DNA of 64,000 nt from an uncultured Candidatus Saccharibacteria bacterium (GTDB lineage: Bacteria > Patescibacteriota > Saccharimonadia > Saccharimonadales > UBA4665), in contig CAZYFP010000001.1 of the NCBI GenBank assembly GCA_964647125.1, positions 108,072 to 172,071 on the forward strand. Reading direction: 5' to 3'. Under the pieces are notes generated by a model. The model saw nothing but the letters and a program-made list of their open reading frames with translations, had not been told where the DNA came from and did no database searches. Positions 2,989-45,270 of the stretch are shown piece by piece (the first letter of the stretch is position 1; each line of letters opens with the position of its first letter). The translations under genes were made by a program, and so were the position numbers.

Positions 2989-3786
2989 ATGACAGAAAGC
3001 CATCGTATTGCAGAAGCGGCCATGGACTCGTTTTGGGAGTTCAAAGAACTCGGAGAGTTTGACCGTGGTTTTGAAATGCTGCGCAGCTTCGGACTTCGTC
3101 CTAATGTTGTTGAGTTTGTGACCTCGCCTGATTCGTACTATTTTCCTAATCAGCGCGGTAATCAACTGATTCGTCCAAAGTCAGTTAGCGACGAAAAAAT
3201 CCCGGTAGTTGCACTTGAAGTGGGCGAAAAATATTGGTTTGAGGCACCCGCACTACACAGTCTACAAAGAAATGCTCTGCTGTTGGCTGGTTGCACGCTC
3301 AATGATGTCGAACTGCTTGATCGAGAGTTTGCGGCGCACGGTACCAGTATTGAAGGTTCTGGTGGCGTCGCTGGCACTGGAAGTGTGGCTAGGAGTCTTG
3401 AGACATCACCAAAGCTACCAGAGAAACGTATTGAATCAGGACCACGGCTTATTTTGAACATTGACCGTACTGCTACGCCTGGACAGATAGATTTTAGTCC
3501 AATTGCGCTACACGAAATAACGCATGTTGCTCAAACATTGTCTGAGCCATTTTGGAAAGACGACTACTTACGTGCTGAGCTGGAAGCGTATGCGGTGCAG
3601 GCAACCTTGATGTTCTCGGACCGTGTGCCATACGATACGAGTATAGCCATGGCAGGCACAGTTGATAACTTTAGACGAAAGTGGCTAGGCAAGGATGAAT
3701 TTGAAACGACGCCAGACTTTGAACGCGCCTTTGCCCAGGATATGATCCTGTCAAAAGTCTACGGCCGACTCGGTCGCGCTAGTTAA
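2989..3786 (+). CDS. hypothetical protein with HExxH motif (possible zinc metallopeptidase-like)
   Basis: 265 aa containing ALHEITHVAQ, with a downstream ELEAYA that could supply the third ligand. TGgTATAAT lies 7 nt upstream of the ATG. Confidence 0.6.
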   Translation: MTESHRIAEAAMDSFWEFKELGEFDRGFEMLRSFGLRPNVVEFVTSPDSYYFPNQRGNQLIRPKSVSDEKIPVVALEVGEKYWFEAPALHSLQRNALLLAGCTLNDVELLDREFAAHGTSIEGSGGVAGTGSVARSLETSPKLPEKRIESGPRLILNIDRTATPGQIDFSPIALHEITHVAQTLSEPFWKDDYLRAELEAYAVQATLMFSDRVPYDTSIAMAGTVDNFRRKWLGKDEFETTPDFERAFAQDMILSKVYGRLGRAS

Positions 3787-6824: not shown

Positions 6825-8045
6825 ATGGATATGGATTTTAAACAACTTGCGGTAGCGATTAAGGCTATTGCAGAAGAGAAGAACTTGCCTGAAGCAACTG
6901 TGCAAGAAGTAGTAGAGCAGGCTTTGGCCGCTGCCTACCGCCGCGACTACGGCGATCGTGAGCAAGAAATACGCGTGACTATGAACTTGAACACCGGCGA
7001 AGTCGATGCATACATCGAAAAAGAAGTCGTTGAGCGAGTCGGTAACGACGCCTTTGAGATTAGCCTAGCTGACGCCCAAGTCCGCAAAAAGAGTGCCAAA
7101 ATTGGTGACATGATCGAGCAGCACGAAAAGGTTGAGACGTTTGGTCGTGTAGCTGCCCAGACTGCCAAGCAAGTTATTTTGCAGCGTCTGCGAGAAGCTG
7201 AGCGCGAAATCGTGATGGCTGAGTTTGAAGACAAAATCGGCACCGTTATTAACGCCGTTGTTAGTCGCGTAGAAGGTAACATCGTGCGTATTGACCTTGG
7301 TCACGCGCAGGGCATCATGCCTCGTAGCGAGCAGATTCAGGGTGAGCGTTACTACCCAGGCCAGCGCCTAAAGGTATTTTTGAAGGATGTTGAGCGCGGC
7401 TTCCGTGGGCCACAGCTAATTGTGAGTCGTGGTAATACTGCATTTGTGGAGTGGTTGTTCCGCGGCGAAGTTCCAGAGATGGATGGTGGCGCTGTTGAGA
7501 TTAAGGCAATCGCCCGCGAAGCTGGAGTACGCAGTAAGATCGCTGTTGCCAGTAACGTTCAGGGTGTAGACCCAGTCGGTACTTTTGTCGGCGGTCACGG
7601 TACTCGTGTGAACGCCGTTATGAGTGAAATTGGCGAACAGGAAAAGATCGACATTATTGTCTTTAGCGACAATACCATCGAGTACATCACTAATGCACTC
7701 AGCCCAACCAAGGTAAGTCGTGTAGAGCTTGACGAGGCAAATAAAAAAGCCCGAATTGTAGTGCCAGAAGACCAGCTCAGTATTGCTATCGGTAAGAGTG
7801 GTCAGAACGTACGTCTTGCTAGTAAGCTAACCGGGTACGAGCTCGATATTGCAGCCGATGCTGCACCTGCTACGCCGGCTGATGCTGAGCCTGCTAGCGA
7901 AGTTGTTGCAACACCTAGCGCTAGCTCGGATGTAGTAGCCGAAGGCAAGATCGAAACAACTGAGCTGCCAAAGCAGCCAAAGCTGAAGCGCAAGAGTGAT
8001 CTTGAAAAAGGTCTACTAGAGGCTATCGAAGAGCACGGCGAATAA
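6825..8045 (+). CDS. nusA: transcription termination/antitermination factor NusA
   Basis: N-terminal AIKAIAEEKNLPEATVQEVVEQALAAAYRR, an S1 region (GTVINAVVSRVEGNIVRIDLG), and KH repeats (DPVGTFVGGHGTRVNAV; LSIAIGKSGQNVRLASKLTG). AAGGAGAA RBS is present; the start could be 6831. Confidence 0.93.
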   Translation: MDMDFKQLAVAIKAIAEEKNLPEATVQEVVEQALAAAYRRDYGDREQEIRVTMNLNTGEVDAYIEKEVVERVGNDAFEISLADAQVRKKSAKIGDMIEQHEKVETFGRVAAQTAKQVILQRLREAEREIVMAEFEDKIGTVINAVVSRVEGNIVRIDLGHAQGIMPRSEQIQGERYYPGQRLKVFLKDVERGFRGPQLIVSRGNTAFVEWLFRGEVPEMDGGAVEIKAIAREAGVRSKIAVASNVQGVDPVGTFVGGHGTRVNAVMSEIGEQEKIDIIVFSDNTIEYITNALSPTKVSRVELDEANKKARIVVPEDQLSIAIGKSGQNVRLASKLTGYELDIAADAAPATPADAEPASEVVATPSASSDVVAEGKIETTELPKQPKLKRKSDLEKGLLEAIEEHGE

Positions 8046-8175: not shown

Positions 8176-8556
8176 ATGAGTGAGCAATGTCCATTTGCGG
8201 CAGACATTCGAGGATCGGTTGAGTTAGATCCCGGAGATCCTGGTTTTTCGTATGTGCCACAATCTTGTGTAGGTTGTCTTGAACTGCCGCTCAGGAATGC
8301 AGCCGAAAGTATTCCGCAAGAATACCTTGAAGAACTTGAGGAGGACTGCATGGACTTCATGTCTGACTCGGCTACCGCCACCACTGTTTTTGCATGGGCA
8401 AGGAATGCCGACAGTACTATCACGGTTACGCGCGAGTCACGTCAAGTCTGGATGCGGGGAGATGAAGAGGTGTCCATTGAGTATCATAGTCGGCGAACGG
8501 CGAAAATTGTATGTGAAAAAGAAGTTCAATTAGCACTCTGGGTTGACGAGTGCTAA
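8176..8556 (+). CDS. hypothetical acidic Cys-containing protein (126 aa)
   Basis: TGcTATAAT lies 6 nt upstream of the ATG. The protein has one CxxC (SCVGC) and an acidic centre, and its stop codon is the last triplet of the CIRCE right arm. Confidence 0.5.
   Translation: MSEQCPFAADIRGSVELDPGDPGFSYVPQSCVGCLELPLRNAAESIPQEYLEELEEDCMDFMSDSATATTVFAWARNADSTITVTRESRQVWMRGDEEVSIEYHSRRTAKIVCEKEVQLALWVDEC
8530..8556. promoter_or_regulatory. CIRCE element (HrcA operator consensus) upstream of clpC
   Basis: Exact TTAGCACTC-N9-GAGTGCTAA with N9 = TGGGTTGAC. It is identical to the copy at 29234-29260. Confidence 0.85.
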
Positions 8557-8572
8557 TTTGTGATGATACTAT
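8543..8572 (+). promoter_or_regulatory. sigma70-like promoter embedded in CIRCE (clpC)
   Basis: TTGACG (8543-8548, in the CIRCE loop and right arm), 18 nt spacer, TACTAT (8567-8572). Confidence 0.5.
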
Positions 8573-8661
8573 TTAGTTAGTAGCTTTTCTGGACTTCAAA
8601 AGTAGATATCTTACAGAAGTTTCTCAGGAAAGAACGCTACAATACTAGTGTTACTCGAAAG

Positions 8662-11163
8662 GTGGCCCACAAGATGTTACCAAACTCCTCAGATTTCCAA
8701 GATTTTTTGAATCATCTCACTAACAATGCATTGCAAAGCATTAAGCATGCCGATGCAATCGCGCGCAGCTTTGGTAGTGCGTATGTTGGCACAGAACACC
8801 TACTGCTCGGTGTGCTGGCACAAGAAACGAGCATGGGTTCAAAGATTCTTGAGGGCGCGGGTGTAACATTAGATCGCGCGCGTTTAGCACTAAACATGAA
8901 CCCTAAAACGCTCGTCATCAATATGGGTGCCAAAGGCCTAAGTGAGGCGGCCAAGCTTACTTTACGCATGGCGTATGATGTTGCGCAGGACTATGGCCAA
9001 GAATACTGTGGCACCGAGCACATTCTCTACAGCATACTGAGTCAAAAAAATGCCAGTGCTACTAAGCTACTGCGCGGTATGAATGTGGATGTCGATACAC
9101 TCGTCAGTGAACTCGAACAATTTTTGAATCGTCAGCAGTACGAAGAAGACGCTGAGGGTGACATGCCTGGAGGCGGTCGCAAAACAGCCACCAAAAAAGC
9201 CCGTAAAACTGCTCTAGATACCTACGGCACTGATCTGACTGCGGAGGCCAAAGCTGGCAAGCTTGATCCGGTAGTTGGCCGCGAGAATCAGATTCGGCGC
9301 CTGGTAACTATCCTGAACCGCCGCACCAAAAATAACCCAGTGCTGATTGGTGAACCAGGGGTCGGCAAAACGGCTATTGTTGAAGGACTTGCCCAGCGCA
9401 TAATTGCTGAGGACGTACCAGACACCTTGCTTGATAAGCGCATCGTCATGCTGGACCTTGCTGGCATGATTGCCGGTACCAAGTACCGTGGTGAATTTGA
9501 AGAACGACTGAAGAAAGTCATGGGCGAGCTAGAGAAAGACAGCAAGACCGTTGTGTTTATCGATGAGCTGCACTTAATAGTTGGTGCCGGAGCTGCCGAA
9601 GGGGCTATGGATGCTGGCAACATTCTGAAGCCAGCACTCGCACGAGGGAAAATACAGCTGATTGGTGCCACGACTACTGATGAATATACCAAGCACATCG
9701 AAAAAGATTCTGCCCTCGAGCGTCGTTTCCAGCCAATTCAAGTACCCGAAACGACCAAAGGCGAGACATTGGCCATTTTGAAGGGCCTCCGAAAGCATTA
9801 CGAAAAATTCCACGGTGTAAAAATTAGCGATGAAGTGCTGGCAGACACCGTGACACTGGCGGCTCGCTACATAAATGACCGCTTTATGCCTGACAAAGCG
9901 ATTGATCTACTGGATGAAACTGCCGCTCACCTTCGAGTCGACAAGGGCAAGACCAATCCAGAAGTTCGCCGCTTGCAAAAAGAATTAAAGCTGACAAATG
10001 CCCGAATTGACGAAGCAGTTGATGCGGAAGATTACGAGCGCGCAGCTCGCTCAAAAACTCGCGCTAGCCAGATCAAGGAAGAACTAGAAGCGTTACATAA
10101 AACAAATAAAACAGTAAAGCGCCTGACGCTTACCAGCGAAGACATAGCTGACGTGGTAGCCCGGATTACCGGTGTGCCAGTCAAAAAGGTGATTCGGTCT
10201 GAAGCGAAGTATTTGCTAAACCTGGAAAAAAACATTGGCAAACACGTCATTGGCCAAGAAGAAGCAGTCGCTGCCGTGTCACGCGCTATCAGACGTAATC
10301 GTGTAGGTATTGGTAGCGAAAGTCGTCCCATTGGCTCGTTCATATTCCTAGGACCAACCGGTGTTGGTAAAACAGAGCTTGCCAAGGTACTTGCCCGTGA
10401 ATTTTTTGGCAGTGAAAAGAATCTAGTCAAAATAGACATGAGCGAATTCGGCGAACATCACAATGTTTCGCGACTGGTGGGTGCACCAGCTGGCTACGTC
10501 GGTTATGACGACGGCGGTCAGTTAACTGATAAAATCCGTCGCCAGCCGTACAGTTTGGTGTTGTTTGATGAGATCGAAAAGGCACATCCAGACGTGTTTA
10601 ATATGCTACTGCAAGTACTCGAGGATGGTCATTTAACTGACGCCAAGGGTCGAAAAATTGACTTCACGAACACGATCATCATCATGACCAGTAATATTGG
10701 GGCAGACAAACTACAGAAGGAAGCAAGTCTTGGGTTTAGCGCTGTGCGCACGACTGACCTGAATGATCTCGATGCATTGCATGCACAGAACAAAGAAAAG
10801 GTGATGGATCAGCTGAAAAAGGAGCTGCGTCCGGAGCTGCTCAACCGTATTGATAAAACGGTGGTCTTCCGTGCTCTAACTAAGAAAGATATCTACAAAA
10901 TAATTGACCTACAGGTTGATGAGCTACGGACACGACTACAAAAGCGTGGTTTGAGTGTTCAGCTGACACCTGCCGCCAAGAGTTATTTGCTCGAAAACGG
11001 TTATGATGCCAAAAATGGCGTCCGGCCACTGCGTAGATTAATTCAGGACACGATTGAAGATAAAGTTGCGCTCGACCTGCTCGATGAAAAATATTTGAAG
11101 GGTGATATCATACAGGTAGCAGCCAAAAACGGCGCACTATCGTATGCGACAACAACCGAATAA
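8662..11163 (+). CDS. clpC: ATP-dependent Clp protease ATP-binding subunit ClpC-type (class I AAA+)
   Basis: Duplicated Clp-N repeats ([10 protein letters not shown] / [10 protein letters not shown]), two Walker A motifs ([15 protein letters not shown]; [15 protein letters not shown]), and a UVR-like linker ([25 protein letters not shown]). The more likely start is ATG 8674, which has AAGGTGG 9 nt upstream. Confidence 0.9.
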
Positions 11164-12172
11164 CATTCCTAGTTTCAGTCCAGAATCTTCTGAACCACGC
11201 GGTCGCGTGTGGTTGGGCCGCTTCTTCTTGCTGGTATTGCTATCGCTAGTAGCTGGAGTATTTTGGCAGCGCCAAGCCATACGAGACTGGATACAGCTGT
11301 ACGGCTACGAACCTCCAGCGAATATTGCAAGTCTCGCAAAACAGACGACCATGACCGACAAGGCCGAGCACTTGTTTTACCTCAACAAACCCATTGTCGC
11401 TAGCAAGAGTGCTTTCGCAAATTACTGCACAAATCAGGAGCAAACAATAGTACTTGGCTGTTACCACAGTGGCCAGGACGGCATATTTATTTTGCAGATT
11501 GCTGCCAATTCGGAACTGGGTGGTGTCATGCAGGTAACGGCTGCCCATGAAATGCTGCATGCTGCCTACGAGCGCTTGGCGCCAGATGAAAAAAACCGAC
11601 TGAACGAGTTGCTTCAAAATTTTTACGACAGTGGGCTCAAGGATAAAGCTATTAAAAGCGAAGTAGATGCCTATCGAAAAACTGAGCCTGGTCAGTTGCT
11701 TAATGAGATGCATTCAATATTTGGTACCGAAGTCGCCAAGCTGCCGAGTGCTTTGCAGCGCTACTACGGACAGTATTTTACCAACCGCAGCAGTGTAGTT
11801 ATTCAGGCGGAACGTTATCAGTCTGCCTTTCGAAAACGAGAACTCGCTGTGAAGAGGTATGATCAGCAATTAACTAACTTGCAGGCTGTTATAGACAGTA
11901 ATCAGGGTGTATTAACGGCCAAAGCCGCTCAGCTCCAGACTGCTCGGTTGCAGCTAGAAAAGGATAGAGCATCTGGTAATATTTCGGCCTACAACGCGGC
12001 CGTACCAGCCTACAATCAGGCTGTGCGCAGCTACAATAGCTTGCTTGAAACCACCAAGCGACAAATTGTGCAATTCAATACAATTGTGACTAAGCGAAAT
12101 GCTTTGGTTGTAGAAGAGCAAGATCTGGTAAAACAGCTGAGTGGTGACTCGCTACCCGCAGCTCAACAATAA
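11144..12172 (+). CDS. hypothetical membrane-anchored protein with HExxH motif and coiled-coil C-terminal half
   Basis: N-terminal TM segment (FFLLVLLSLVAGVFW), AAHEMLHAAY, and a Gln/Ala-rich heptad-like C-terminus. It overlaps the clpC end by 20 nt. Confidence 0.6.
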   Translation: MRQQPNNIPSFSPESSEPRGRVWLGRFFLLVLLSLVAGVFWQRQAIRDWIQLYGYEPPANIASLAKQTTMTDKAEHLFYLNKPIVASKSAFANYCTNQEQTIVLGCYHSGQDGIFILQIAANSELGGVMQVTAAHEMLHAAYERLAPDEKNRLNELLQNFYDSGLKDKAIKSEVDAYRKTEPGQLLNEMHSIFGTEVAKLPSALQRYYGQYFTNRSSVVIQAERYQSAFRKRELAVKRYDQQLTNLQAVIDSNQGVLTAKAAQLQTARLQLEKDRASGNISAYNAAVPAYNQAVRSYNSLLETTKRQIVQFNTIVTKRNALVVEEQDLVKQLSGDSLPAAQQ

Positions 12173-12198
12173 GTGCGAAATGGTACACTGGTAGTATT

Positions 12199-13554
12199 AT
12201 GGCGAAAAAACCTGCAGTTCGATATGTCTGTACAAATTGTGGAGCGATGCAGTCTAGCTGGGCCGGGCGTTGCTCGCAGTGTAATGAGTGGAATACGTTG
12301 CAAGAAGAGGCAATGCTGGTTACTTCGGTTTCCGGTAAAGTCAGTCATGGCAGAAGCTTGCAGACGGGCAGTGTTAGTTCGTCAGTTGCACATGATCAAC
12401 AACGCATCTCAACTGGCATTGCAGATGTAGATGCAGTGCTGGGCGGTGGTATTGTACCTGGCAGTGTCACGCTGATAGCCGGGCAACCTGGCATTGGCAA
12501 GAGTACGCTGCTGTTGCAGCTGGCCTACGCTGCTGCGGCAAAGGTGCCAGTTTTGTATGTGAGCGGTGAAGAGTCCGCTCATCAAGTTGGCTTGAGAGCA
12601 GAACGGCTTGGCACGCAGCGTGAGCAGCTGCAGATTGCCACCAGTACGTCAGCAGATGATGTGGCGGCAACCTTAGCGGCGGGGGAGGCCAAGCTACTGA
12701 TTGTCGACTCTATTCAGACTATGAGTGCCGATGCGGTTGCGAGTGCGGCTGGCAGTATTTCGCAGATTACCAACAGTACAAATCTTATTACATCTGCAGC
12801 CAAGCGCAGCGATACGGCCGTCTTCCTTGTCGGGCATGTTACCAAAGAAGGCACTATCGCCGGACCAAAAGTCATGGAGCACATGGTAGACGTGGTGTTG
12901 CAGCTAGAGGGCGATCAGTATGGCGGTTTTAAGATCCTACGCGCCAGCAAGAACCGTTATGGTGCCACGACTGAATCGGCTATTTTTGAGATGGAAGATA
13001 CCGGTCTAAAAATTGTTGAAAATCCGTCCGCTACGCTTTTGGCAGAGCGCCAGATAACGGACGGCTCTGTTGTACTTGCGACGCTTGAGGGTACTCGCCC
13101 GCTCCTTGTTGAAGTGCAAGCCCTGGTAAATAAAACTAGCTATGGCTATCCGAAACGTGCCGCCAGTGGCCTCGAGCTAAATCGGTTAAACCTACTGGTG
13201 GCCATGCTAGAACGGCGCACAAAATTAAACTTGTCTGACCAGGATATTTACATCAATATCGTTGGTGGTATTCGCGTTAACGATCCGGCGGCCGATCTGG
13301 CAATCTGTCTAGCAATCGGTTCGGCAGCAAAAGGACTCAAGCTCCATGACAATGCAGTGGTATTTGGCGAGGTTGGCCTAAGTGGGGAAATTCGTCACGT
13401 ACCCTATGCCGAAAAGCGTATAGCCGAAGCTAAAAAGCTTGGCTACACCATGGCAATTGGACCGAAACTACGGAGTAGCAAAGCCGTGGCTGGACTCAAG
13501 AGTGTTAGCTCGGTTCGAGAAGCCCTCAATACATTCTTGGAAAAAGACAGCTAG
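12199..13554 (+). CDS. radA: DNA repair protein RadA/Sms
   Basis: Zinc ribbon CTNCGAMQSSWAGRCSQCNEWNT, Walker A GQPGIGKSTLLLQ, the KNRYG motif, and a Lon-like C-terminal domain. Confidence 0.93.
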   Translation: MAKKPAVRYVCTNCGAMQSSWAGRCSQCNEWNTLQEEAMLVTSVSGKVSHGRSLQTGSVSSSVAHDQQRISTGIADVDAVLGGGIVPGSVTLIAGQPGIGKSTLLLQLAYAAAAKVPVLYVSGEESAHQVGLRAERLGTQREQLQIATSTSADDVAATLAAGEAKLLIVDSIQTMSADAVASAAGSISQITNSTNLITSAAKRSDTAVFLVGHVTKEGTIAGPKVMEHMVDVVLQLEGDQYGGFKILRASKNRYGATTESAIFEMEDTGLKIVENPSATLLAERQITDGSVVLATLEGTRPLLVEVQALVNKTSYGYPKRAASGLELNRLNLLVAMLERRTKLNLSDQDIYINIVGGIRVNDPAADLAICLAIGSAAKGLKLHDNAVVFGEVGLSGEIRHVPYAEKRIAEAKKLGYTMAIGPKLRSSKAVAGLKSVSSVREALNTFLEKDS

Positions 13555-17906: not shown

Positions 17907-19610
17907 ATGCTGCGCCGCTTACTTAATACTAAACACCTGGTGCCGGCGGCCGTCTTTTTTCTTTTCGTTGGCTACAACTTGACTGTTGTCGGCCCAGCCT
18001 ATTTATCCGACGAGGCTGCCTACCTGTCTAAGGCTGCTACTGTTGCGGGCAGCACAGTTCATCATTCGACAAGTTGGTTTGGTGGCTACTCTGTACTGAT
18101 TAGTCCAGCGTATCTGCTGTCGTCCAACATCTTCGTGCAGTGGCATATTGTCATGATTATTAACGCTCTGATGTGGGTCGTTACCACCTACTTGCTGCGC
18201 TATGTACTCCAGCAAACACATCCTAAGGCTAAGCGACTACATATTGAACTCGCAACACTTGGCGCAATACTGTATCCGGCGTGGTTATCAATGAGCGGCT
18301 ATGCGTTTTCAACCAGCGGGTTTGTACTAGTACTGCTGGCAGTATTTTCAGCCCTTGCTAAAAGCCGGCTAAAGAGTCTGCCTTGGCTATGCTTGGCTGG
18401 TCTTGCAGCCGGTTATCTGTACTGGATACATCCATTTGCGATATTGTTTGTCGGCCTGTTCGTTGTTCTGTTGCTGGCACTTGCCTGGTCACAAAAGCGG
18501 AAAGAGTTATTAGTAGTTCCACTCATTAGTGCGGGTATGGCTGTTTTGTACACAATTGCTGTGCAGCCATGGTTTGTGGAGCGAATGAAATCTAGCCTCG
18601 GTAGTGATGACCACTACAGTCGCGGGGTTCACTATGTTATATCAGCGTTTTCTTCGCCATCGGTGTGGGGAAGTATAGCCCTTGAGCTGCTAGGGTTGTT
18701 ATTTACGCTTATCATTGCGACATTTGGATTTGCAGTGTTTGCTGCAGTCCCAGTTTGGCAGCGGCTAGTAAAAGATCGCCGTAAATGTCGTACGCTGTTG
18801 CAGGATACGAGCTTTGTACTACAGCTACTCGCGGTACTCAGTGTCGTACTAATACTGGGTTTTGTTGCAGTGCTGTGGGGCACAAACGGCCACCGCAGGA
18901 TCGACCACTGGATTTACGAACGCTACACCGATATGTATATTTTGCCCCTGTTGGCGATGGGCTTGCTGGCGCGCTGGCGTTTGAAGTGGTCGGCATTTTT
19001 GGCAGGCCTGGTGCTGGCTATTGGTATCGTGTTGAGCCTTGTAACGAATCCGGCAAACACTTCATTTCGGTTTGTAAACAAGGTTGACTTGCAGGCGTTG
19101 TGGTCAATGCATGCAGCGTCTGCCGTGACGAGTACTATTGCCAACTATTGGCTGTGGGGGTTGATTGGTGCCATTGGTGTGCTATTCGTCGGGTTTGCGA
19201 CGGGAAAGCGGAAACGGTTACTCTGGCTGCTGGCTTTGCCAATAGCATTAAGTGCGGCGGGTAATTACAGATACCACCACGCCATTATTCGTGATCACTC
19301 AATGGTTACATCTCTTTACGACCAACTCAAGAATACCTACTCGCGGTCGGACTGTATTGGTTTCACGCCGCAAAAAAATAGCAGTGAGCGTTTTCAATTG
19401 TACGCGTACTACTTGCATGGCTATAACTTGCGACAAATGACCCTGCAACAGTGGCAGCAATCCTGTGCCGGGCCATACCTAACGTACCGACTACCGCCTC
19501 AAAGTAGTTTTAGCTATGACATTGTTGGCCGTGAAGAAATCAGCGGATTATATTTAATCACTAAGGCACTACCACGTCACAACACAGCCGTGCCACTTTT
19601 GTTCAAGTGA
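17907..19610 (+). CDS. polytopic membrane protein, probably a GT-C-fold glycosyltransferase
   Basis: 567 aa with more than 10 predicted TM segments. LSDEAAYLSKA follows the first TM, resembling the DE-x-x-Y loop motif of ArnT/PMT-type enzymes. Confidence 0.55.
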   Translation: MLRRLLNTKHLVPAAVFFLFVGYNLTVVGPAYLSDEAAYLSKAATVAGSTVHHSTSWFGGYSVLISPAYLLSSNIFVQWHIVMIINALMWVVTTYLLRYVLQQTHPKAKRLHIELATLGAILYPAWLSMSGYAFSTSGFVLVLLAVFSALAKSRLKSLPWLCLAGLAAGYLYWIHPFAILFVGLFVVLLLALAWSQKRKELLVVPLISAGMAVLYTIAVQPWFVERMKSSLGSDDHYSRGVHYVISAFSSPSVWGSIALELLGLLFTLIIATFGFAVFAAVPVWQRLVKDRRKCRTLLQDTSFVLQLLAVLSVVLILGFVAVLWGTNGHRRIDHWIYERYTDMYILPLLAMGLLARWRLKWSAFLAGLVLAIGIVLSLVTNPANTSFRFVNKVDLQALWSMHAASAVTSTIANYWLWGLIGAIGVLFVGFATGKRKRLLWLLALPIALSAAGNYRYHHAIIRDHSMVTSLYDQLKNTYSRSDCIGFTPQKNSSERFQLYAYYLHGYNLRQMTLQQWQQSCAGPYLTYRLPPQSSFSYDIVGREEISGLYLITKALPRHNTAVPLLFK

Positions 19611-21694: not shown

Positions 21695-22510
21695 ATGTAT
21701 TCTGGATCTACTTTTACGACATTTTCGGGGCGTATTTTGGGCGCTCATCAAAAGATTGATCGCGTTGCCAGGCGGCATGTGCGGGCATTGGCTCCAGGAG
21801 CGTATTTTCCGGGTATTCAGCGTATTTTGCACTTCGAAGGCGGCAATGGGCCAGATGCTATCAAACGTAAAAGTCCGGCCAAAGATGAGCCGTGGCACTA
21901 TTTCAAGCCGTTTGATCTGGAAGATACCGATCTACTAGAGCAGATCAGTAACCACTACGAACTGCTTACTAAGAGTTTAGCTAAACACGACGAAATTCGG
22001 GCTGGCTTTGAGGCCGCCTGGCTAGCGCATGCCATTGTCGACGGTCTTACTCCCGCACATCACTTCCCCTACGAAGAGACGCTGATCGAATTGCGTGGTG
22101 GTGAAGGTATTGAAAGTCGGACTACTATCAAAGAAAAACTAGTAATGCCCGGTGATACAAAACGTGAGCAAGTGGCAAACAATTGGAAAATGTGGGGGCC
22201 CGGTGGGCTTATGACTTCGCATGGCACGTTTGAGTGGGGAGTGGCTACGGCTATCGTGCCGCTTCGCTTCAAACTAGCACTGCCAACTGACGAAGAAATA
22301 GAGAAATTTAGGTCGCAAACTATTGCTGAATGGTACCGTGAGACGGCCCAAGAAATAGTAGCGCTGGGGTTATATGATCGATTTTTGAAAACTGGTTGGA
22401 CTATTCCATTAACCAAAGCGGTACGTAAGCAGTTAGCTCCACGTATTGTGAGAGCCGTTACACTCGCATGGTATGGGGCATTGTATGAATCGCGTAGGGG
22501 TAAAGCATGA
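21695..22510 (+). CDS. hypothetical protein, possibly phospholipase C/P1-nuclease-like zinc hydrolase fold
   Basis: 271 aa with His/Asp-rich motifs (EPWHYFKPFD; AHAIVDGLTPAHH) reminiscent of that superfamily. It is tightly coupled to recG upstream and overlaps rsmD (ATGA). Confidence 0.5.
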   Translation: MYSGSTFTTFSGRILGAHQKIDRVARRHVRALAPGAYFPGIQRILHFEGGNGPDAIKRKSPAKDEPWHYFKPFDLEDTDLLEQISNHYELLTKSLAKHDEIRAGFEAAWLAHAIVDGLTPAHHFPYEETLIELRGGEGIESRTTIKEKLVMPGDTKREQVANNWKMWGPGGLMTSHGTFEWGVATAIVPLRFKLALPTDEEIEKFRSQTIAEWYRETAQEIVALGLYDRFLKTGWTIPLTKAVRKQLAPRIVRAVTLAWYGALYESRRGKA

Positions 22511-23342: not shown

Positions 23343-23933
23343 GTGGCGATGAAGATTCATGACGTTATATATGTTCCCGGCATTGGTGACGACCCCAGAG
23401 GGCTGCAAGAAAAGCTTATACAGACATGGAAAATCTTTGGCGCCCGGCCGCATAGGTTTGAACTGCCGTGGGACGGACAACAGTCATTTGACTCAAAATT
23501 AGCCCACTTATTGAGTTATATTGATGGGCTTACACAGCAGGGGCACCGGGTGTCACTAGTTGGAGCAAGTGCAGGTGCTGGAGCGGTTATTAATGCCTTT
23601 GCGGCTCGACCAGACACGGTATCTGGAGTCATCTGTATCGCCGGCAAAGTTAACCATCCACAGACGATTGGCTCGGCATACCGCAAGCGTAGTGCTGCTT
23701 TTCACGAGTCTGCGGTTTTGGTCAAAGGTTCATTGGCTCAACTTGATGAACTGAAGAAGCTAGCAGCAATCCAGTCCAGATATGCACTACTCGACCCAAT
23801 TGTTTTACGTCGGGACAGCATCGTAAAGGGCGCGACCAATGTGACCGTGCCGACGATTGGTCACGCCACCACCATCGCCACTCAGTTAGTTTTTGGTGCA
23901 CCGTTTTATCTCAAATTCCTAAAAGAACTGTAG
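23343..23933 (+). CDS. alpha/beta-hydrolase-fold protein (likely start ATG 23349)
   Basis: VIYVPGIGDD and the nucleophile elbow LVGASAGAG (GxSxG). TACAAT lies 7 nt upstream of ATG 23349. Confidence 0.65.
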   Translation: MAMKIHDVIYVPGIGDDPRGLQEKLIQTWKIFGARPHRFELPWDGQQSFDSKLAHLLSYIDGLTQQGHRVSLVGASAGAGAVINAFAARPDTVSGVICIAGKVNHPQTIGSAYRKRSAAFHESAVLVKGSLAQLDELKKLAAIQSRYALLDPIVLRRDSIVKGATNVTVPTIGHATTIATQLVFGAPFYLKFLKEL

Positions 23934-24057
23934 TCTACTACTTGCAACATGCTCATAAATAGTATATCGTAAGAGACATGTTTGCTAAGCCTAACCAACC
24001 CCATGTACATACAGTGCCGGAGCATGTCGGTTAGTTAGCTTTTCTCTGAAAACCAAT

Positions 24058-24089
24058 AACGCCAGACACGCTCTGGCGTTTTTATTTTG
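24058..24089 (+). terminator. rho-independent terminator
   Basis: AACGCCAGA-CACGC-TCTGGCGTT followed by TTTATTTT. Confidence 0.75.
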
Positions 24090-24162
24090 TAAACAATGTA
24101 AATTAGGAAACATATTATGAACACCAAAGAACAAATTAGATTACTGCTATCAGAAGAAACCA

Positions 24163-24804
24163 GTGGAAAACCTAAAGGCGGTCAACAGCTGGACTGTCTT
24201 CATCGACTACGCAGCGCAGAAAAATAAACTAAGGCTTTTCGTGCCATGGGCAGCGCCCCCAGATGGACGTATTGAGCTGGGTGCAGAAGTATCAACCATT
24301 GAATGGCTTATGGGCAAGCAAGGGCTTGCTTCCAAGCTTGGCCAATTGATTGCAGTAGAAACGATTGTCATGCCAGCAGATAGCTATGTCAGGCGGAATG
24401 GTTTCGATATGCAAAATGTGGCCGCGTACTGGCAACGCGTTCAAGCTCAATTGCTGTCAAGGTCCGAAGTTGTATTTGTCGAATCTTCGCGCATCGAGGC
24501 ATGCGGGATCATGAAGCAGTACATGGCTCAAGAGTCATATGCTTTGGAGCGACTCAATCCTGGAACACAGCAAAAAGTTATCGCCGCAGCTGCTAAGTAT
24601 ACTAATCAAAGTGGTGAAGAGGCGTATATGAGTGCGGCGGATTACGCAATGCGTCGGGCAGCAGAGGCTCGTTTTGTACAATACGACTTCCAGGCATTGT
24701 GGGTGAGCCTTAACTGGCCTGAGCGTGATGCTATGTGCGGAGCAACGCCACGTGTATACGTTCCAGAAGAGCTTAGAACGCCATGGTTACAAGGAGGACT
24801 GTAA
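24163..24804 (+). CDS. hypothetical protein (213 aa, GTG start in the ORF track; N-terminus uncertain)
   Basis: Long ORF with no recognisable motif. Its stop TAA overlaps the ATG of the next gene (TAATG). A well-placed RBS plus ATG at 24117 is in a different frame. Confidence 0.55.
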   Translation: MENLKAVNSWTVFIDYAAQKNKLRLFVPWAAPPDGRIELGAEVSTIEWLMGKQGLASKLGQLIAVETIVMPADSYVRRNGFDMQNVAAYWQRVQAQLLSRSEVVFVESSRIEACGIMKQYMAQESYALERLNPGTQQKVIAAAAKYTNQSGEEAYMSAADYAMRRAAEARFVQYDFQALWVSLNWPERDAMCGATPRVYVPEELRTPWLQGGL

Positions 24805-28777: not shown

Positions 28778-29233
28778 ATGTCAGAGCAGCTCGGTTTATT
28801 CGCAGAAGCAATAATCAAACCCGAGCCTAGTGGTGCCGAAACAGATACAGAAGATTGTCTACCAGGGCTTGAGCAGTCCAACGTACTACACATGGTGTTT
28901 AGTCAGTCACGCTTAAAGCAAGTGACTGACCGAGCCCATAGCTTCGATACCTGGTATCGACACGACGCCGCAGAGGATCACTCGCAATTATTCTTTACGC
29001 ATTTCAAGCACGACGACGATGTGCGACTGGGAATTGTGAATATCTATTTGCGTCCATCCGGCGGTTTCATCTGCAACGCAGAGATTCAGGATGCAAAAGA
29101 CCCCGACGACAGTAAATGCATGCTGGTAGCTGCTGGCTACGAAAACCCATTCCAGGTCAGGCAGTGGCTCGAGGAGTTAATCATAAGTGATGTCGTAGAG
29201 TACGTTACAGACGACCCGTACAAGTACGCATAG
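28778..29233 (+). CDS. hypothetical acidic protein (151 aa)
   Basis: It starts 6 nt after the tig stop and ends 1 nt before the clpP CIRCE. Its N-terminus MSEQLGLFAEAI resembles that of ORF 8176. Confidence 0.5.
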   Translation: MSEQLGLFAEAIIKPEPSGAETDTEDCLPGLEQSNVLHMVFSQSRLKQVTDRAHSFDTWYRHDAAEDHSQLFFTHFKHDDDVRLGIVNIYLRPSGGFICNAEIQDAKDPDDSKCMLVAAGYENPFQVRQWLEELIISDVVEYVTDDPYKYA

Positions 29234-29260
29234 TTAGCACTCTGGGTTGACGAGTGCTAA
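29234..29260. promoter_or_regulatory. CIRCE element (HrcA operator consensus) upstream of clpP
   Basis: Exact TTAGCACTC-TGGGTTGAC-GAGTGCTAA. Confidence 0.85.
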
Positions 29261-29276
29261 TTGTTGGGCGTATACT
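29247..29276 (+). promoter_or_regulatory. sigma70-like promoter embedded in CIRCE (clpP)
   Basis: TTGACG (29247-29252), 18 nt spacer, TATACT (29271-29276). The clpP ATG is at 29329, preceded by a GGAGG RBS. Confidence 0.6.
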
Positions 29277-29328
29277 CTGTATATAACTTTTCACACGCCT
29301 TGCAGCGTGCACAAATGGAGGTAAAACT

Positions 29329-29931
29329 ATGAGCGTATTAGTCCCAACTGTTATCGAAAGCGAAGGCCGTTACGAGCGCGCCTATGACATATATTCTCGC
29401 TTGCTAAAAGATCGCATTATATTCCTTGGCAGTGATGTCAACGAAGTGTCGGCTAATGTCATTGTGGCCCAGCTACTGTTCCTGCAGTCTGAAGATGCTA
29501 AGAAGGACATCTTTTTGTATATAAACAGCCCCGGTGGTAGCGTATACGATGCCTTGGCTATCTATGACACTATGCAATTTGTTACCAACGACGTGCAGAC
29601 CGTTGGTATTGGTGTGCAAGCCAGCGCAGCAGCGTTTTTGCTAAGTAGTGGTGCAAAAGGTAAGCGATTCCTATTGCCCAATAGTACGGTTATGATCCAT
29701 CAGCCGAGCAGTGGTACGCGTGGTAAGGTGACTGACCAAGAGATTGATCTTAAGGAATCTCTGCGTATCAAAAAGCTGCTGGAAGAAATTATGGCTAAAA
29801 ACACCGGCCAGAAGCCAGCCAAAATCCATGAAGACATGGAACGTGACAAGTGGCTGACATCTGACGAAGCTCTGAAGTACGGTATTGTCGATAAAGTAAT
29901 CAGCGATATCACCATTCCTCAAAAGGCTTAG
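29329..29931 (+). CDS. clpP: ATP-dependent Clp protease proteolytic subunit
   Basis: [27 protein letters not shown], a Ser in ASAAAFLL that aligns to the catalytic Ser of the usual ASMGAFLL, MIHQPS (His), and [17 protein letters not shown] (Asp). Confidence 0.93.
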
Positions 29932-30141
29932 TTTAGCTAAAGCACTTGACACAAATTGTATAGTCCGGCACACTGTAACGTAAGAAGTAGTGTAAGCCGG
30001 GCTGTGCTCGTTTTTGCCAACGTTACGTTGTAGAAACCGCACCAAACACGCCCAGTTTAGGAACCTTCGCGCGAACAACTACAAAACATTTATTAACCAC
30101 CAATAACACCGGTAATTATAAGGGGGCGTTGACGTCTGCGT

Positions 30142-44097: not shown

Positions 44098-44499
44098 ATG
44101 AGTCAAGAAGAGACGGAACAGTTTGTAGATTATTACAAGTTATTTGATATCGAGCCTGCCGCCACGCTGGCGACTATTCGTACGCGGTATATTCGATTAG
44201 CGAAAGACAATCATCCTGATGTTGGTGGCTCAACAGCGGCCATGCAACGATTGAATACGGCATATAAAACCTTGGCAAACAGCACCTCACGTGCGGCTTA
44301 TGACATGTTGCATGGCCTGCACACTGGGCGTGATGGACAGCCAGTCTACCAGTACACTCAGGCACCTAGTAGCGCTAGCGGTGCAGTTTCAGACGACTAC
44401 GTTGACATGTTTATAGAGCAGCTTTACAACGAGCTATCTTCAATTAAAAAACAAAGCCAAAAGCAGAGTTTATTCCAGCGCTTGTTCGGCTCGGGGTAG
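44098..44499 (+). CDS. J-domain-only protein (DnaJ-like, 133 aa from ATG 44098; ORF track starts at TTG 44083)
   Basis: DYYKLFDIEPAATLATIRTRYIRLAKDNHPDVGG...LNTAYKTLANSTSRAAYD is a canonical J domain with the HPD tripeptide. There is no Gly/Phe or zinc-finger region. Confidence 0.75.
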   Translation: MSQEETEQFVDYYKLFDIEPAATLATIRTRYIRLAKDNHPDVGGSTAAMQRLNTAYKTLANSTSRAAYDMLHGLHTGRDGQPVYQYTQAPSSASGAVSDDYVDMFIEQLYNELSSIKKQSQKQSLFQRLFGSG

Positions 44500-45270
44500 C
44501 GGCTCGGCAAAAGGCTGCGAGTTTGCTGCGCTGCTGGTCAGCGTATCGACTGTGCGCGCTAGCTTACGACGTACAACTAGCCCAAAAGTCCCCGTTCGTA
44601 TGTGGCGCTCAATTCGGTCGGCTCTAGCTCGCAGCAGATCAGTGCGAGTATAAGCGATTTCGGTTGAGAAGTGATCTTTGATGTACTGCCAATCCATACG
44701 AGGCTGATCTGTTACAGAACATAATTTGGTGGCTAAACGAGCTAAACTGCTGCGAGCAGGCAAGTAGGTATCAATAGGCGCGAATACGGACCGGTGATCG
44801 GCTGTCATGAAGGCCCCAAAAGGCACATTAAGATTATTTGGTCTGCTGCCACAAACGAGCTGCTGAAACCTGCCGGTTTTAAGGTGGTCTGCTAGTTCGC
44901 TAACCGTTTGCCAGCCCAGCCAGTTGGTTGGCTCGGCAATTTCAACGCCAGAAAACGAACCTTTTCCCACCACAATCACATCACTTATGTGGGGGTTGGT
45001 CGCTATTTCCTTAAAATCAGTCAGTGTGGCATCAAGAGCAAGGTGTGGTGTTTTGCCTGTTTGTCGGCGGGTGTGGTCAACAAAACGAAGTGTTTGGGCT
45101 GCGAGATAGGCAAACGTTTCAACCTTTTCCGATTCGGCGTGACGTGCATGATCGTACGGCAGCACTATTGCTAGCTCGCCCTGGTTTGGCGGCACACTGA
45201 AGTGGGCATCCGCCTGTTGCTGATCCCATTTATCCAGAGCTGCTCGGAACTGCTGTCTATCGCTTGCCAT
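44470..45270 (-). CDS. hypothetical protein (266 aa), the only minus-strand gene inside the ribosomal supercluster
   Basis: Long ORF, convergent with the J-domain gene, with a 30 nt 3' overlap. An AT-rich divergent promoter region is shared with rpsJ. Confidence 0.55.
   Translation of the reverse strand: MASDRQQFRAALDKWDQQQADAHFSVPPNQGELAIVLPYDHARHAESEKVETFAYLAAQTLRFVDHTRRQTGKTPHLALDATLTDFKEIATNPHISDVIVVGKGSFSGVEIAEPTNWLGWQTVSELADHLKTGRFQQLVCGSRPNNLNVPFGAFMTADHRSVFAPIDTYLPARSSLARLATKLCSVTDQPRMDWQYIKDHFSTEIAYTRTDLLRARADRIERHIRTGTFGLVVRRKLARTVDTLTSSAANSQPFAEPLPRAEQALE

Follow-up and report, generated by a model that had tools for sequence, protein, structure and literature searches.

Perfect CIRCE operators embedded in predicted promoters of clpC and clpP in a Saccharibacteria genome region

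Introduction

The HrcA repressor and its operator, CIRCE, an inverted repeat that controls the expression of chaperones, form the class I heat-shock system described for the groESL and hrcA-grpE-dnaK-dnaJ operons of Bacillus subtilis and also for Chlamydia and Geobacter. Here, a stretch of DNA of 64 kb from an uncultured Saccharibacterium (hereafter the window, meaning the whole stretch) was analysed, in which two copies of this operator precede clpC and clpP. The locus resembles the class I system in the inverted repeat itself, which has the identical form TTAGCACTC-N9-GAGTGCTAA in a promoter-proximal position, in the existence of a groESL target in the same phylum, and in the location of the repressor gene by grpE and dnaK in the cultivated strain ML1. 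It differs in its targets, which in this case are an unfoldase, ClpC, and a peptidase, ClpP, in the position of the operator, which covers the -35 hexamer and the spacer of the predicted promoter whereas the B. subtilis CIRCE is located downstream of the -10, and in the repressor of the Patescibacteria, which has about 225-250 aa and lacks the inserted domain.

In Firmicutes, the class III regulator CtsR has the same target genes and clpC shows the same linkage to radA, as in the B. subtilis operon ctsR-mcsA-mcsB-clpC-radA-disA; the window, in contrast, carries neither the heptad repeat nor ctsR, mcsA or mcsB upstream, and its operator is a CIRCE. A known case of CIRCE preceding clpP is that of Streptococcus salivarius, whose clpP is 'dually regulated' by CtsR and HrcA according to the title of Chastanet & Msadek (2003), cited in PMC3842655; there, CIRCE would stand together with a CtsR box and a full CtsR system, whereas here it is the sole recognisable operator and is also present at clpC. 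For Mollicutes, the HrcA regulon is given as comprising the dnaK operon along with clpB and lon (PMC5138195, citing Chang et al. 2008). Like them, Saccharibacteria have a reduced genome in which HrcA is among the few conserved regulators and CIRCE lies on AAA+ quality-control genes beyond the chaperonins; however, the Patescibacteria are an unrelated lineage, and the Mollicutes targets are Lon and ClpB, a disaggregase with no peptidase partner, instead of ClpC and ClpP each with its own operator. The same layout as in the window, with a loop whose 3' end is TTGAC and a -10 about 9 nt past the right arm, is found at hsp20 and clpB of Lachnospiraceae, in Butyrivibrio even with the identical 27-mer, but there the target genes encode a small heat-shock protein and the disaggregase ClpB instead of the ClpCP protease.

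This is a known system with new targets in a new phylum, and the mechanism itself is textbook. Its particular feature, as read from the sequences compared, is that across the phylum both partners of the ClpC-ClpP pair have an operator of their own, and that no sign of the CtsR system was seen. In the literature searched, no paper was found that links HrcA or CIRCE to Saccharibacteria or Patescibacteria.

Results

Two identical operators precede clpC and clpP

An exact CIRCE at positions 8530-8556 had been proposed in an earlier note on this DNA. By direct reading, this segment is TTAGCACTC-TGGGTTGAC-GAGTGCTAA, with no mismatch to the consensus TTAGCACTC-N9-GAGTGCTAA as quoted in PMC545781 and PMC3842655. 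When the window was searched for the pattern, a second copy that the note had not mentioned was detected at 29234-29260, identical over the 27-mer and including the same N9 loop. Both copies have the CIRCE architecture of a 9-bp inverted repeat with a 9-nt spacer. With up to three mismatches allowed, 0.03 matches were expected by chance in 64 kb and two were found, both perfect; no further CIRCE-like site was detected in the window at up to five arm mismatches. The features are as follows.

8530..8556, no strand: CIRCE operator 1, perfect consensus match; the same 27-mer lies at clpC or clpP in 16 Saccharibacteria genomes
29234..29260, no strand: CIRCE operator 2, identical 27-mer, located by pattern search

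Operator 1 ends 117 nt before the ATG of clpC at 8674, and operator 2 lies 68 nt upstream of clpP. The copy at clpP is the strongest support within the window for HrcA/CIRCE control of clp genes. The earlier note gave a distance of about 100 nt to clpC; counted to the ATG at 8674, a more likely start than the GTG at 8662, it is 117 nt.

The operators lie within predicted sigma-70-type promoters

A consensus promoter scan agreed with the hexamers proposed earlier for clpC, TTGACG at 8543-8548 followed after 18 nt by TACTAT at 8567-8572, and added an alternative -10, GATACT at 8565-8570, with a 16-nt spacer. These hexamer pairs are the sole promoter-like matches on the + strand between nusA and clpC. 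At clpP, the promoter-like site that overlaps the operator is likewise the only one of its region.

8543..8548, + strand: -35 TTGACG of clpC, made of the end of the operator loop and the first base of the right arm; its position in the loop covaries with the -10 over 42 sites
8565..8572, + strand: -10 region of clpC, GATACT or TACTAT, from the promoter scan; in orthologous loci, the hexamer is TATTAT, TATACT or TATATT and the spacer 17 +/- 1 nt
29247..29276, + strand: predicted clpP promoter, TTGACG (29247-29252), 18-nt spacer and TATACT (29271-29276), 10 of 12 consensus matches

Thus, this layout places the -35 in the 9-nt loop and the right arm across half of the spacer, with a -10 that begins 8-10 nt beyond that arm. 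The predicted 5' untranslated region would be of about 95 nt for clpC and of about 45 nt for clpP, the latter with a GGAGG ribosome-binding site. A recurrent sequence, (G)TAG(C/T)(G/A), was also seen about 6-7 nt past the clpC -10 in most Saccharibacteria loci, in the predicted region of transcription start (8579-8585 in the window; also in loci L143, L144, L146 and L147 of the compared set).

Operator and promoter are conserved together across Saccharibacteria

Candidatus Saccharimonadales/Saccharibacteria is the label of the nearest ClpC proteins (81-93% identity) and of 16 of the 17 genome loci with the exact 27-mer; therefore, the lineage is Saccharibacteria (Patescibacteria, or candidate phyla radiation, CPR), which gives a name to the 'different reduced lineage' of the earlier note. 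Another 16 species genomes of Saccharibacteria/Patescibacteria have the exact 27-mer, which precedes clpP in 11 loci and clpC in 5, and in 16/16 its TTGAC side faces the clp gene. The flanks are not conserved save for a short T-rich stretch at the right arm and a -10-like hexamer (TATACT, TATAAT, TATATT, TAAAAT or TATAGT) 16-18 nt past TTGACG.

As a guard against ascertainment bias, a blind sample was taken of eight ClpC orthologues (82-93% identity), picked by identity tier and size of contig only. A CIRCE with 0-1 mismatch precedes clpC in every one of them, and no other good CIRCE-like site is present in any of these 22.5-kb loci. Among Saccharibacteria loci without exact-match ascertainment, the first four loop bases vary freely, and a special role of the loop sequence TGGG was accordingly rejected.

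Two layouts of the element occur: in one, the -35 takes the 3' end of the loop (NNNNTTGAC, offset 4), and in the other its 5' end (TTGACNNNN, offset 0). In the former (36 sites), the -10 begins 8-10 nt past the right arm, and in the latter (6 sites) 4-6 nt past it, in such a way that the spacer between -35 and -10 stays at 16-18 nt over all 42 sites. Such covariation is required of a functional sigma-70-type promoter and unexpected of a free-standing palindrome, and it points to a real promoter with the operator inside it. The earlier claim that the operator covers the -35 and the spacer of the clpC promoter is supported by the 16 genomes, the eight blind orthologues and this covariation.

In many Saccharibacteria loci (L003, L005, L010, L012, L013, L007 and L017), the ATG of clpP is located 6-10 nt past the -10, so the clpP mRNA of these organisms is probably leaderless; a start codon at the predicted transcription start also fits with this hexamer pair being the promoter. 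Three loci carry the right-arm variant GAGTGCCAA (T-to-C) without a compensating change in the left arm, and a terminator scan (GC-rich stem-loop plus U-run) called no intrinsic terminator at either CIRCE of the window. Therefore, the constraint appears to act on a protein-binding sequence and not on a hairpin.

The same operator design at groESL and in other bacteria

A metagenome scan was run with TTAGCACTC-NNNN-TTGAC-GAGTGCTAA, leaving the first four loop bases free, and gave a sample of at least 120 loci. Among the matches listed, the genes downstream encode Hsp20 (57), ClpB (25), ClpP (9), GroES/GroEL (6), ClpC (3), HrcA (3), DnaJ (2) or other proteins (5), the remaining 10 loci being too short. 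The ClpP and ClpC loci among these matches are Saccharibacteria-like.

At least five Saccharibacteria loci have groES-groEL behind the same design: the GroEL of one (L060) is labelled Candidatus Saccharibacteria bacterium, L020, L045 and L046 encode GroEL proteins that share 82-90% identity with that one, and the link to L065 is through a GroES of 86% identity. Therefore, the canonical target of HrcA bears the same operator design in this phylum. The order CIRCE-hrcA-grpE-(hsp20)-dnaK was found in at least three loci, from Parcubacteria (L076), Kuenenbacteria (L120) and an unlabelled contig of low GC content (L043).

In Lachnospiraceae of gut and rumen, CIRCE with the -35 in its loop is also very common before hsp20 and clpB, as in Agathobacter (hsp20), Roseburia faecis (clpB) and Butyrivibrio, and it occurs at clpB in Peregrinibacteria (L137), at dnaJ (L111, L123) and at groES in a gammaproteobacterium. 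Roseburia faecis is not a reduced-genome lineage. Hence, reduced genomes are not alone in having this layout, nor in placing a Clp-family ATPase under HrcA, and the idea that CIRCE governs Clp/Lon-type genes mainly in such genomes, while it agrees with the Mollicutes clpB and lon (PMC5138195), is qualified by R. faecis clpB and S. salivarius clpP.

A short HrcA in the phylum

According to the supplements of Wang et al. (2023, PMC10633639), Southlakia epibionticum ML1 encodes SEML1_0720, a 242-aa 'transcriptional regulator' assigned to K03705 (hrcA), with domains PF01628 and PF03444 and ECOD matches e1stzA1 and e1stzA3. In the same tables its gene lies directly upstream of grpE and dnaK and is essential by transposon sequencing (Tn-seq), whereas clpC and clpP are non-essential. 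Regarding the hrcA homologue on which the earlier proposal depended, one is thus present at the level of the phylum, by grpE-dnaK in ML1, but not in the window itself.

The HrcA proteins of other Patescibacteria are also short, with 225-252 aa (L076:1380-2117; L043:5426-6142, - strand; L120:4053-4730), although none of these three is from a Saccharibacterium. They align with B. subtilis HrcA over the winged helix-turn-helix (wHTH) domain, including S[SP]ATIRN[DE]M, and in the C-terminal motifs QPEF, IGK.N and GP.RM.Y; they also have QPH.SAGRIPT.K in common with Thermotoga maritima HrcA. What they lack is a single contiguous block of about 97 residues, equivalent to B. subtilis residues ~130-226, which corresponds to the inserted domain of the T. 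maritima structure 1STZ. The Parcubacteria protein (L076) scored 222 bits against a cutoff of 197 for the NCBIfam hrcA equivalog TIGR00331, and a profile of the three short proteins matched residues 15-97 of 1STZ (E = 5e-25). An AlphaFold2 model of the L076 protein (predicted local distance difference test, pLDDT, 85; predicted TM-score, pTM, 0.82) gave TM-scores to 1STZ of 0.72-0.74 when normalised to the short protein and of 0.57-0.58 when normalised to 1STZ. The model is consistent with a short HrcA made of the wHTH and a GAF-like domain, without the inserted domain.

No sign of CtsR

The CtsR heptad (A/G)GTCAAA-NAN-(A/G)GTCAAA was scanned for in the window at three mismatches, yielding six matches against 6.3 expected and none near clpC or clpP, so a CtsR box at the clp genes was rejected. 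Neither was ctsR-mcsA-mcsB found before clpC in the window, nusA and a family-less 126-aa open reading frame (ORF) standing there instead. The ML1 annotation, as given in the supplements of PMC10633639, lists no CtsR, McsB, ClpX or Lon, and has two sigma factors of which the second is essential. The earlier note was thus correct in seeing no CtsR repeat and no ctsR, mcsA or mcsB. The CIRCE operators on clp genes may reflect the loss of CtsR followed by takeover, as in the 'collapse' that the note had suggested, or may be the ancestral state.

Proposed mechanism and alternatives

We consider it highly probable that the two sites are genuine CIRCE/HrcA operators, each embedded in a sigma-70-type promoter and wired to clpC and clpP. 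The sequence, its conservation across the phylum, the promoter geometry, the tie to groESL and an HrcA homologue in the phylum are observed, whereas HrcA binding, repression, induction by stress and the extent of the operon are inferred. Given that the arrangement is conserved phylum-wide, HrcA, the repressor of chaperone genes, very probably governs the principal protein-degrading machine of Saccharibacteria. A dimer of the short HrcA (wHTH plus GAF-like domain) would bind both arms, cover the -35 and half of the spacer, and exclude RNA polymerase. Without stress, clpC (probably together with the ORF behind it and radA) would be repressed, and clpP likewise through the second, identical site. 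In the GroEL-HrcA titration model established in Bacillus and Chlamydia, the chaperonin keeps HrcA active. Similarly, unfolded proteins would here titrate the chaperonin, HrcA would leave the DNA, and the ClpC-ClpP protease would be induced alongside GroES-GroEL, which carries the same operator design.

A number of observations weigh against this reading. The -10 of clpC in the window is weak (4/6 matches) and its spacer ambiguous, of 16 or 18 nt. No hrcA lies within the 64-kb window, where groESL and dnaK were not found either; a query with B. subtilis HrcA for an hrcA of Saccharibacteria returned Bacillaceae only among its best 120 matches; the profile of the three short proteins led to Moranbacteria, Parcubacteria and Kuenenbacteria but to no Saccharibacteria hrcA; and none was present in any locus of the compared set. 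The inserted domain that the short HrcA lacks reportedly mediates dimerisation in 1STZ, which makes binding to a palindrome harder to account for. In published TM7x transcriptomes, stable symbiosis brings a joint rise of the Clp ATPase and clpP, whereas the higher levels of most chaperones occur at the initial encounter; therefore, the Clp and chaperone genes are not obviously co-regulated there, under conditions other than heat. Finally, the clpC leader of the window and of its closest relatives contains TTACAG-N20/21-GCTACAAT, which might be a second, operator-independent signal. The hexamers at the operator had been called the only plausible promoter; they are the only ones that the scan matched between nusA and clpC, but this conserved pair qualifies the claim.

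The last point gives rise to the alternative that survives best, namely that clpC is mainly transcribed from a second promoter in its leader (TTACAG-N21-GCTACAAT, 8611-8643), CIRCE control being only partial, which would be compatible with the operator-in-promoter reading. In full, the pair reads cTTACAG-N20/21-GCTACA(A/C)T (8611-8616 and 8636-8643 in the window) and is conserved in the leaders of the three closest relatives (L140, L141 and L142); the second, essential sigma factor of ML1 also speaks for it. However, a spacing of 20-21 nt is unfit for a sigma-70-type promoter and was not called by the scan, and the short-leader orthologues L143, L144, L146 and L147 lack the motif yet retain the CIRCE promoter. 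We consider this alternative rather unlikely; the pair, being spaced too widely for a sigma-70-type promoter, could be a site for a second sigma factor or a leader RNA element.

That the operator is real but bound by a regulator other than HrcA, or that HrcA was lost here and the sites are relics, would be in line with the lack of hrcA in the window and with the truncation of the HrcA of the phylum by about 97 residues. Nevertheless, the arms are the universal CIRCE consensus under strong purifying selection across species, whereas relics would decay; ML1 has an essential HrcA homologue; and the short HrcA proteins of Patescibacteria, although none is Saccharibacterial, keep the wHTH recognition stretch of the B. 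subtilis and T. maritima proteins. This explanation is consequently very improbable.

Equally hard to sustain is the idea that the main role of the inverted repeat is that of a hairpin in RNA or DNA, serving the small ORFs upstream (of 126 and 151 aa) as terminator or stabiliser, or else influencing mRNA stability, an influence that has been reported for the B. subtilis CIRCE. The perfect 9-bp stem is often followed by a T-rich run (TTTGTG here, TTTTTG in several loci) and the region folds better than shuffled sequences (z = -2.6), but the T-richness is that of the promoter spacer, the terminator scan found nothing at either site, and compensatory changes between the arms were not seen, not even for the T-to-C change on the right. 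Moreover, the genes upstream change between species while the element is fixed relative to the downstream -10 and start codon, and the left arm would lie outside the clp transcripts because the -35 sits inside the loop. A mobile or repeated element was rejected, the two copies in the window sharing just the 27-mer and about 2 nt, and so was a known RNA family at the operators, the sole Rfam match in the window being one tRNA.

Almost nothing is known of how transcription is controlled in Patescibacteria. If the operator-in-promoter reading is right, the stress regulon and the promoter architecture seen here would be the first to be recognised in Saccharibacteria. The target side of this regulon, conserved across the phylum, consists of the operators at clpC, clpP and groESL, whereas the repressor side rests on the essential short HrcA of one cultivated strain and the short HrcA proteins of other Patescibacteria. 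The promoter-operator module displays the predicted form of a promoter in these organisms, TTGAC, 16-18 nt and TAnnnT, often with a leaderless transcript. HrcA control of Clp-family genes also appears broader than the Mollicutes, since clpB of Roseburia and Peregrinibacteria carries the operator. More tentatively, and on balance doubtfully, a minimal HrcA without the inserted dimerising domain may be the single master repressor of all cytoplasmic proteostasis, namely GroESL, the DnaK system, ClpC and ClpP, its essentiality in Tn-seq then perhaps stemming from lethal over-production of ClpCP. In that case, the operator-in-promoter module would be the first regulatory switch to be defined in this phylum, and might be of use for stress-inducible expression in these newly tractable bacteria. 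These hypotheses are testable in the genetically tractable strains ML1 and TM7x.

Gene context of clpC and clpP

The window is a housekeeping region with rplS, rnhB, pepN, nusA (6825-8045), a 126-aa ORF (8176-8556) and the Clp ATPase gene (8674-11163). Next come a 342-aa ORF that overlaps this gene, then radA, a class A penicillin-binding protein gene, tyrS, recG, hisS, tig, a 151-aa ORF, clpP (29329-29931), rpoB, rpoC, fusA, tuf and secY. According to the supplements of PMC10633639, ML1 shares the orders nusA-clpC-hypothetical-radA and hisS-tig-hypothetical-clpP followed by rpoB-rpoC, with one extra hypothetical gene between clpP and rpoB. The features relevant here are these.

8657..8665, + strand: clpC ribosome-binding site GAAAGGTGG, by direct reading, ending 8 nt before the ATG at 8674
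8674..11163, + strand: clpC, 829-aa AAA+ unfoldase of the ClpC type; among solved structures, ClpC/ClpC1 match best, aligned end to end
11144..13554, + strand: 342-aa ORF (11144-12172) and radA (12199-13554); overlap with clpC, then a 27-nt gap
29329..29931, + strand: clpP, 200 aa, with ribosome-binding site GGAGG at 29317-29321; NF001368 at 286 bits (cutoff 249)

The most likely start of clpC is the ATG at 8674 rather than the GTG at 8662, because the N-termini of the orthologues match it and the ribosome-binding site GAAAGGTGG precedes it. The predicted product has the features of the ClpC class, namely a Clp_N domain, two AAA+ modules, a short middle domain and an (L/I/V)GF loop, here an LGF ClpP-docking loop at residues 686-688; its Walker A motifs are 334 residues apart, compared with 400 in a ClpB. 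The top NCBIfam score was that of the ClpB model, yet below its own cutoff; a ClpB was rejected because the protein has the LGF loop and a short middle domain and because its solved-structure matches are ClpC proteins.

The 342-aa ORF, with a weak AAA_13 match, overlaps the end of clpC by 20 nt, and the order of clpC, this ORF and radA is kept in 8/8 loci. As the junctions between the three show no promoter or terminator signals above chance, and given the overlap, the gap and the conserved order, the ORF and radA are probably co-transcribed with clpC as a single operon. A terminator-like hairpin follows clpP at 29998-30010.

The 126-aa ORF (8176-8556) was called but belongs to no family, and its stop codon is supplied by the right arm of operator 1. 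This ending is expected because the CIRCE of the window has stops in all three forward frames (TAG, TGA and TAA). Variable, family-less small ORFs precede both operators, in the nusA-clpC (8176-8556) and tig-clpP (28778-29233) gaps; no significant similarity was found between the two in the window (126 and 151 aa). Such ORFs, also seen between nusA and clpC in L142-L146, vary by species and show no relation to one another, and any of them ends at the CIRCE. Elsewhere in the window, ORFs without a Pfam or NCBIfam family, of up to 567 aa, were seen at 17907-19610, 2989-3786, 21695-22510, 23343-24804 and 44470-45270; such family-less ORFs among core genes are typical 'dark matter' of the CPR.

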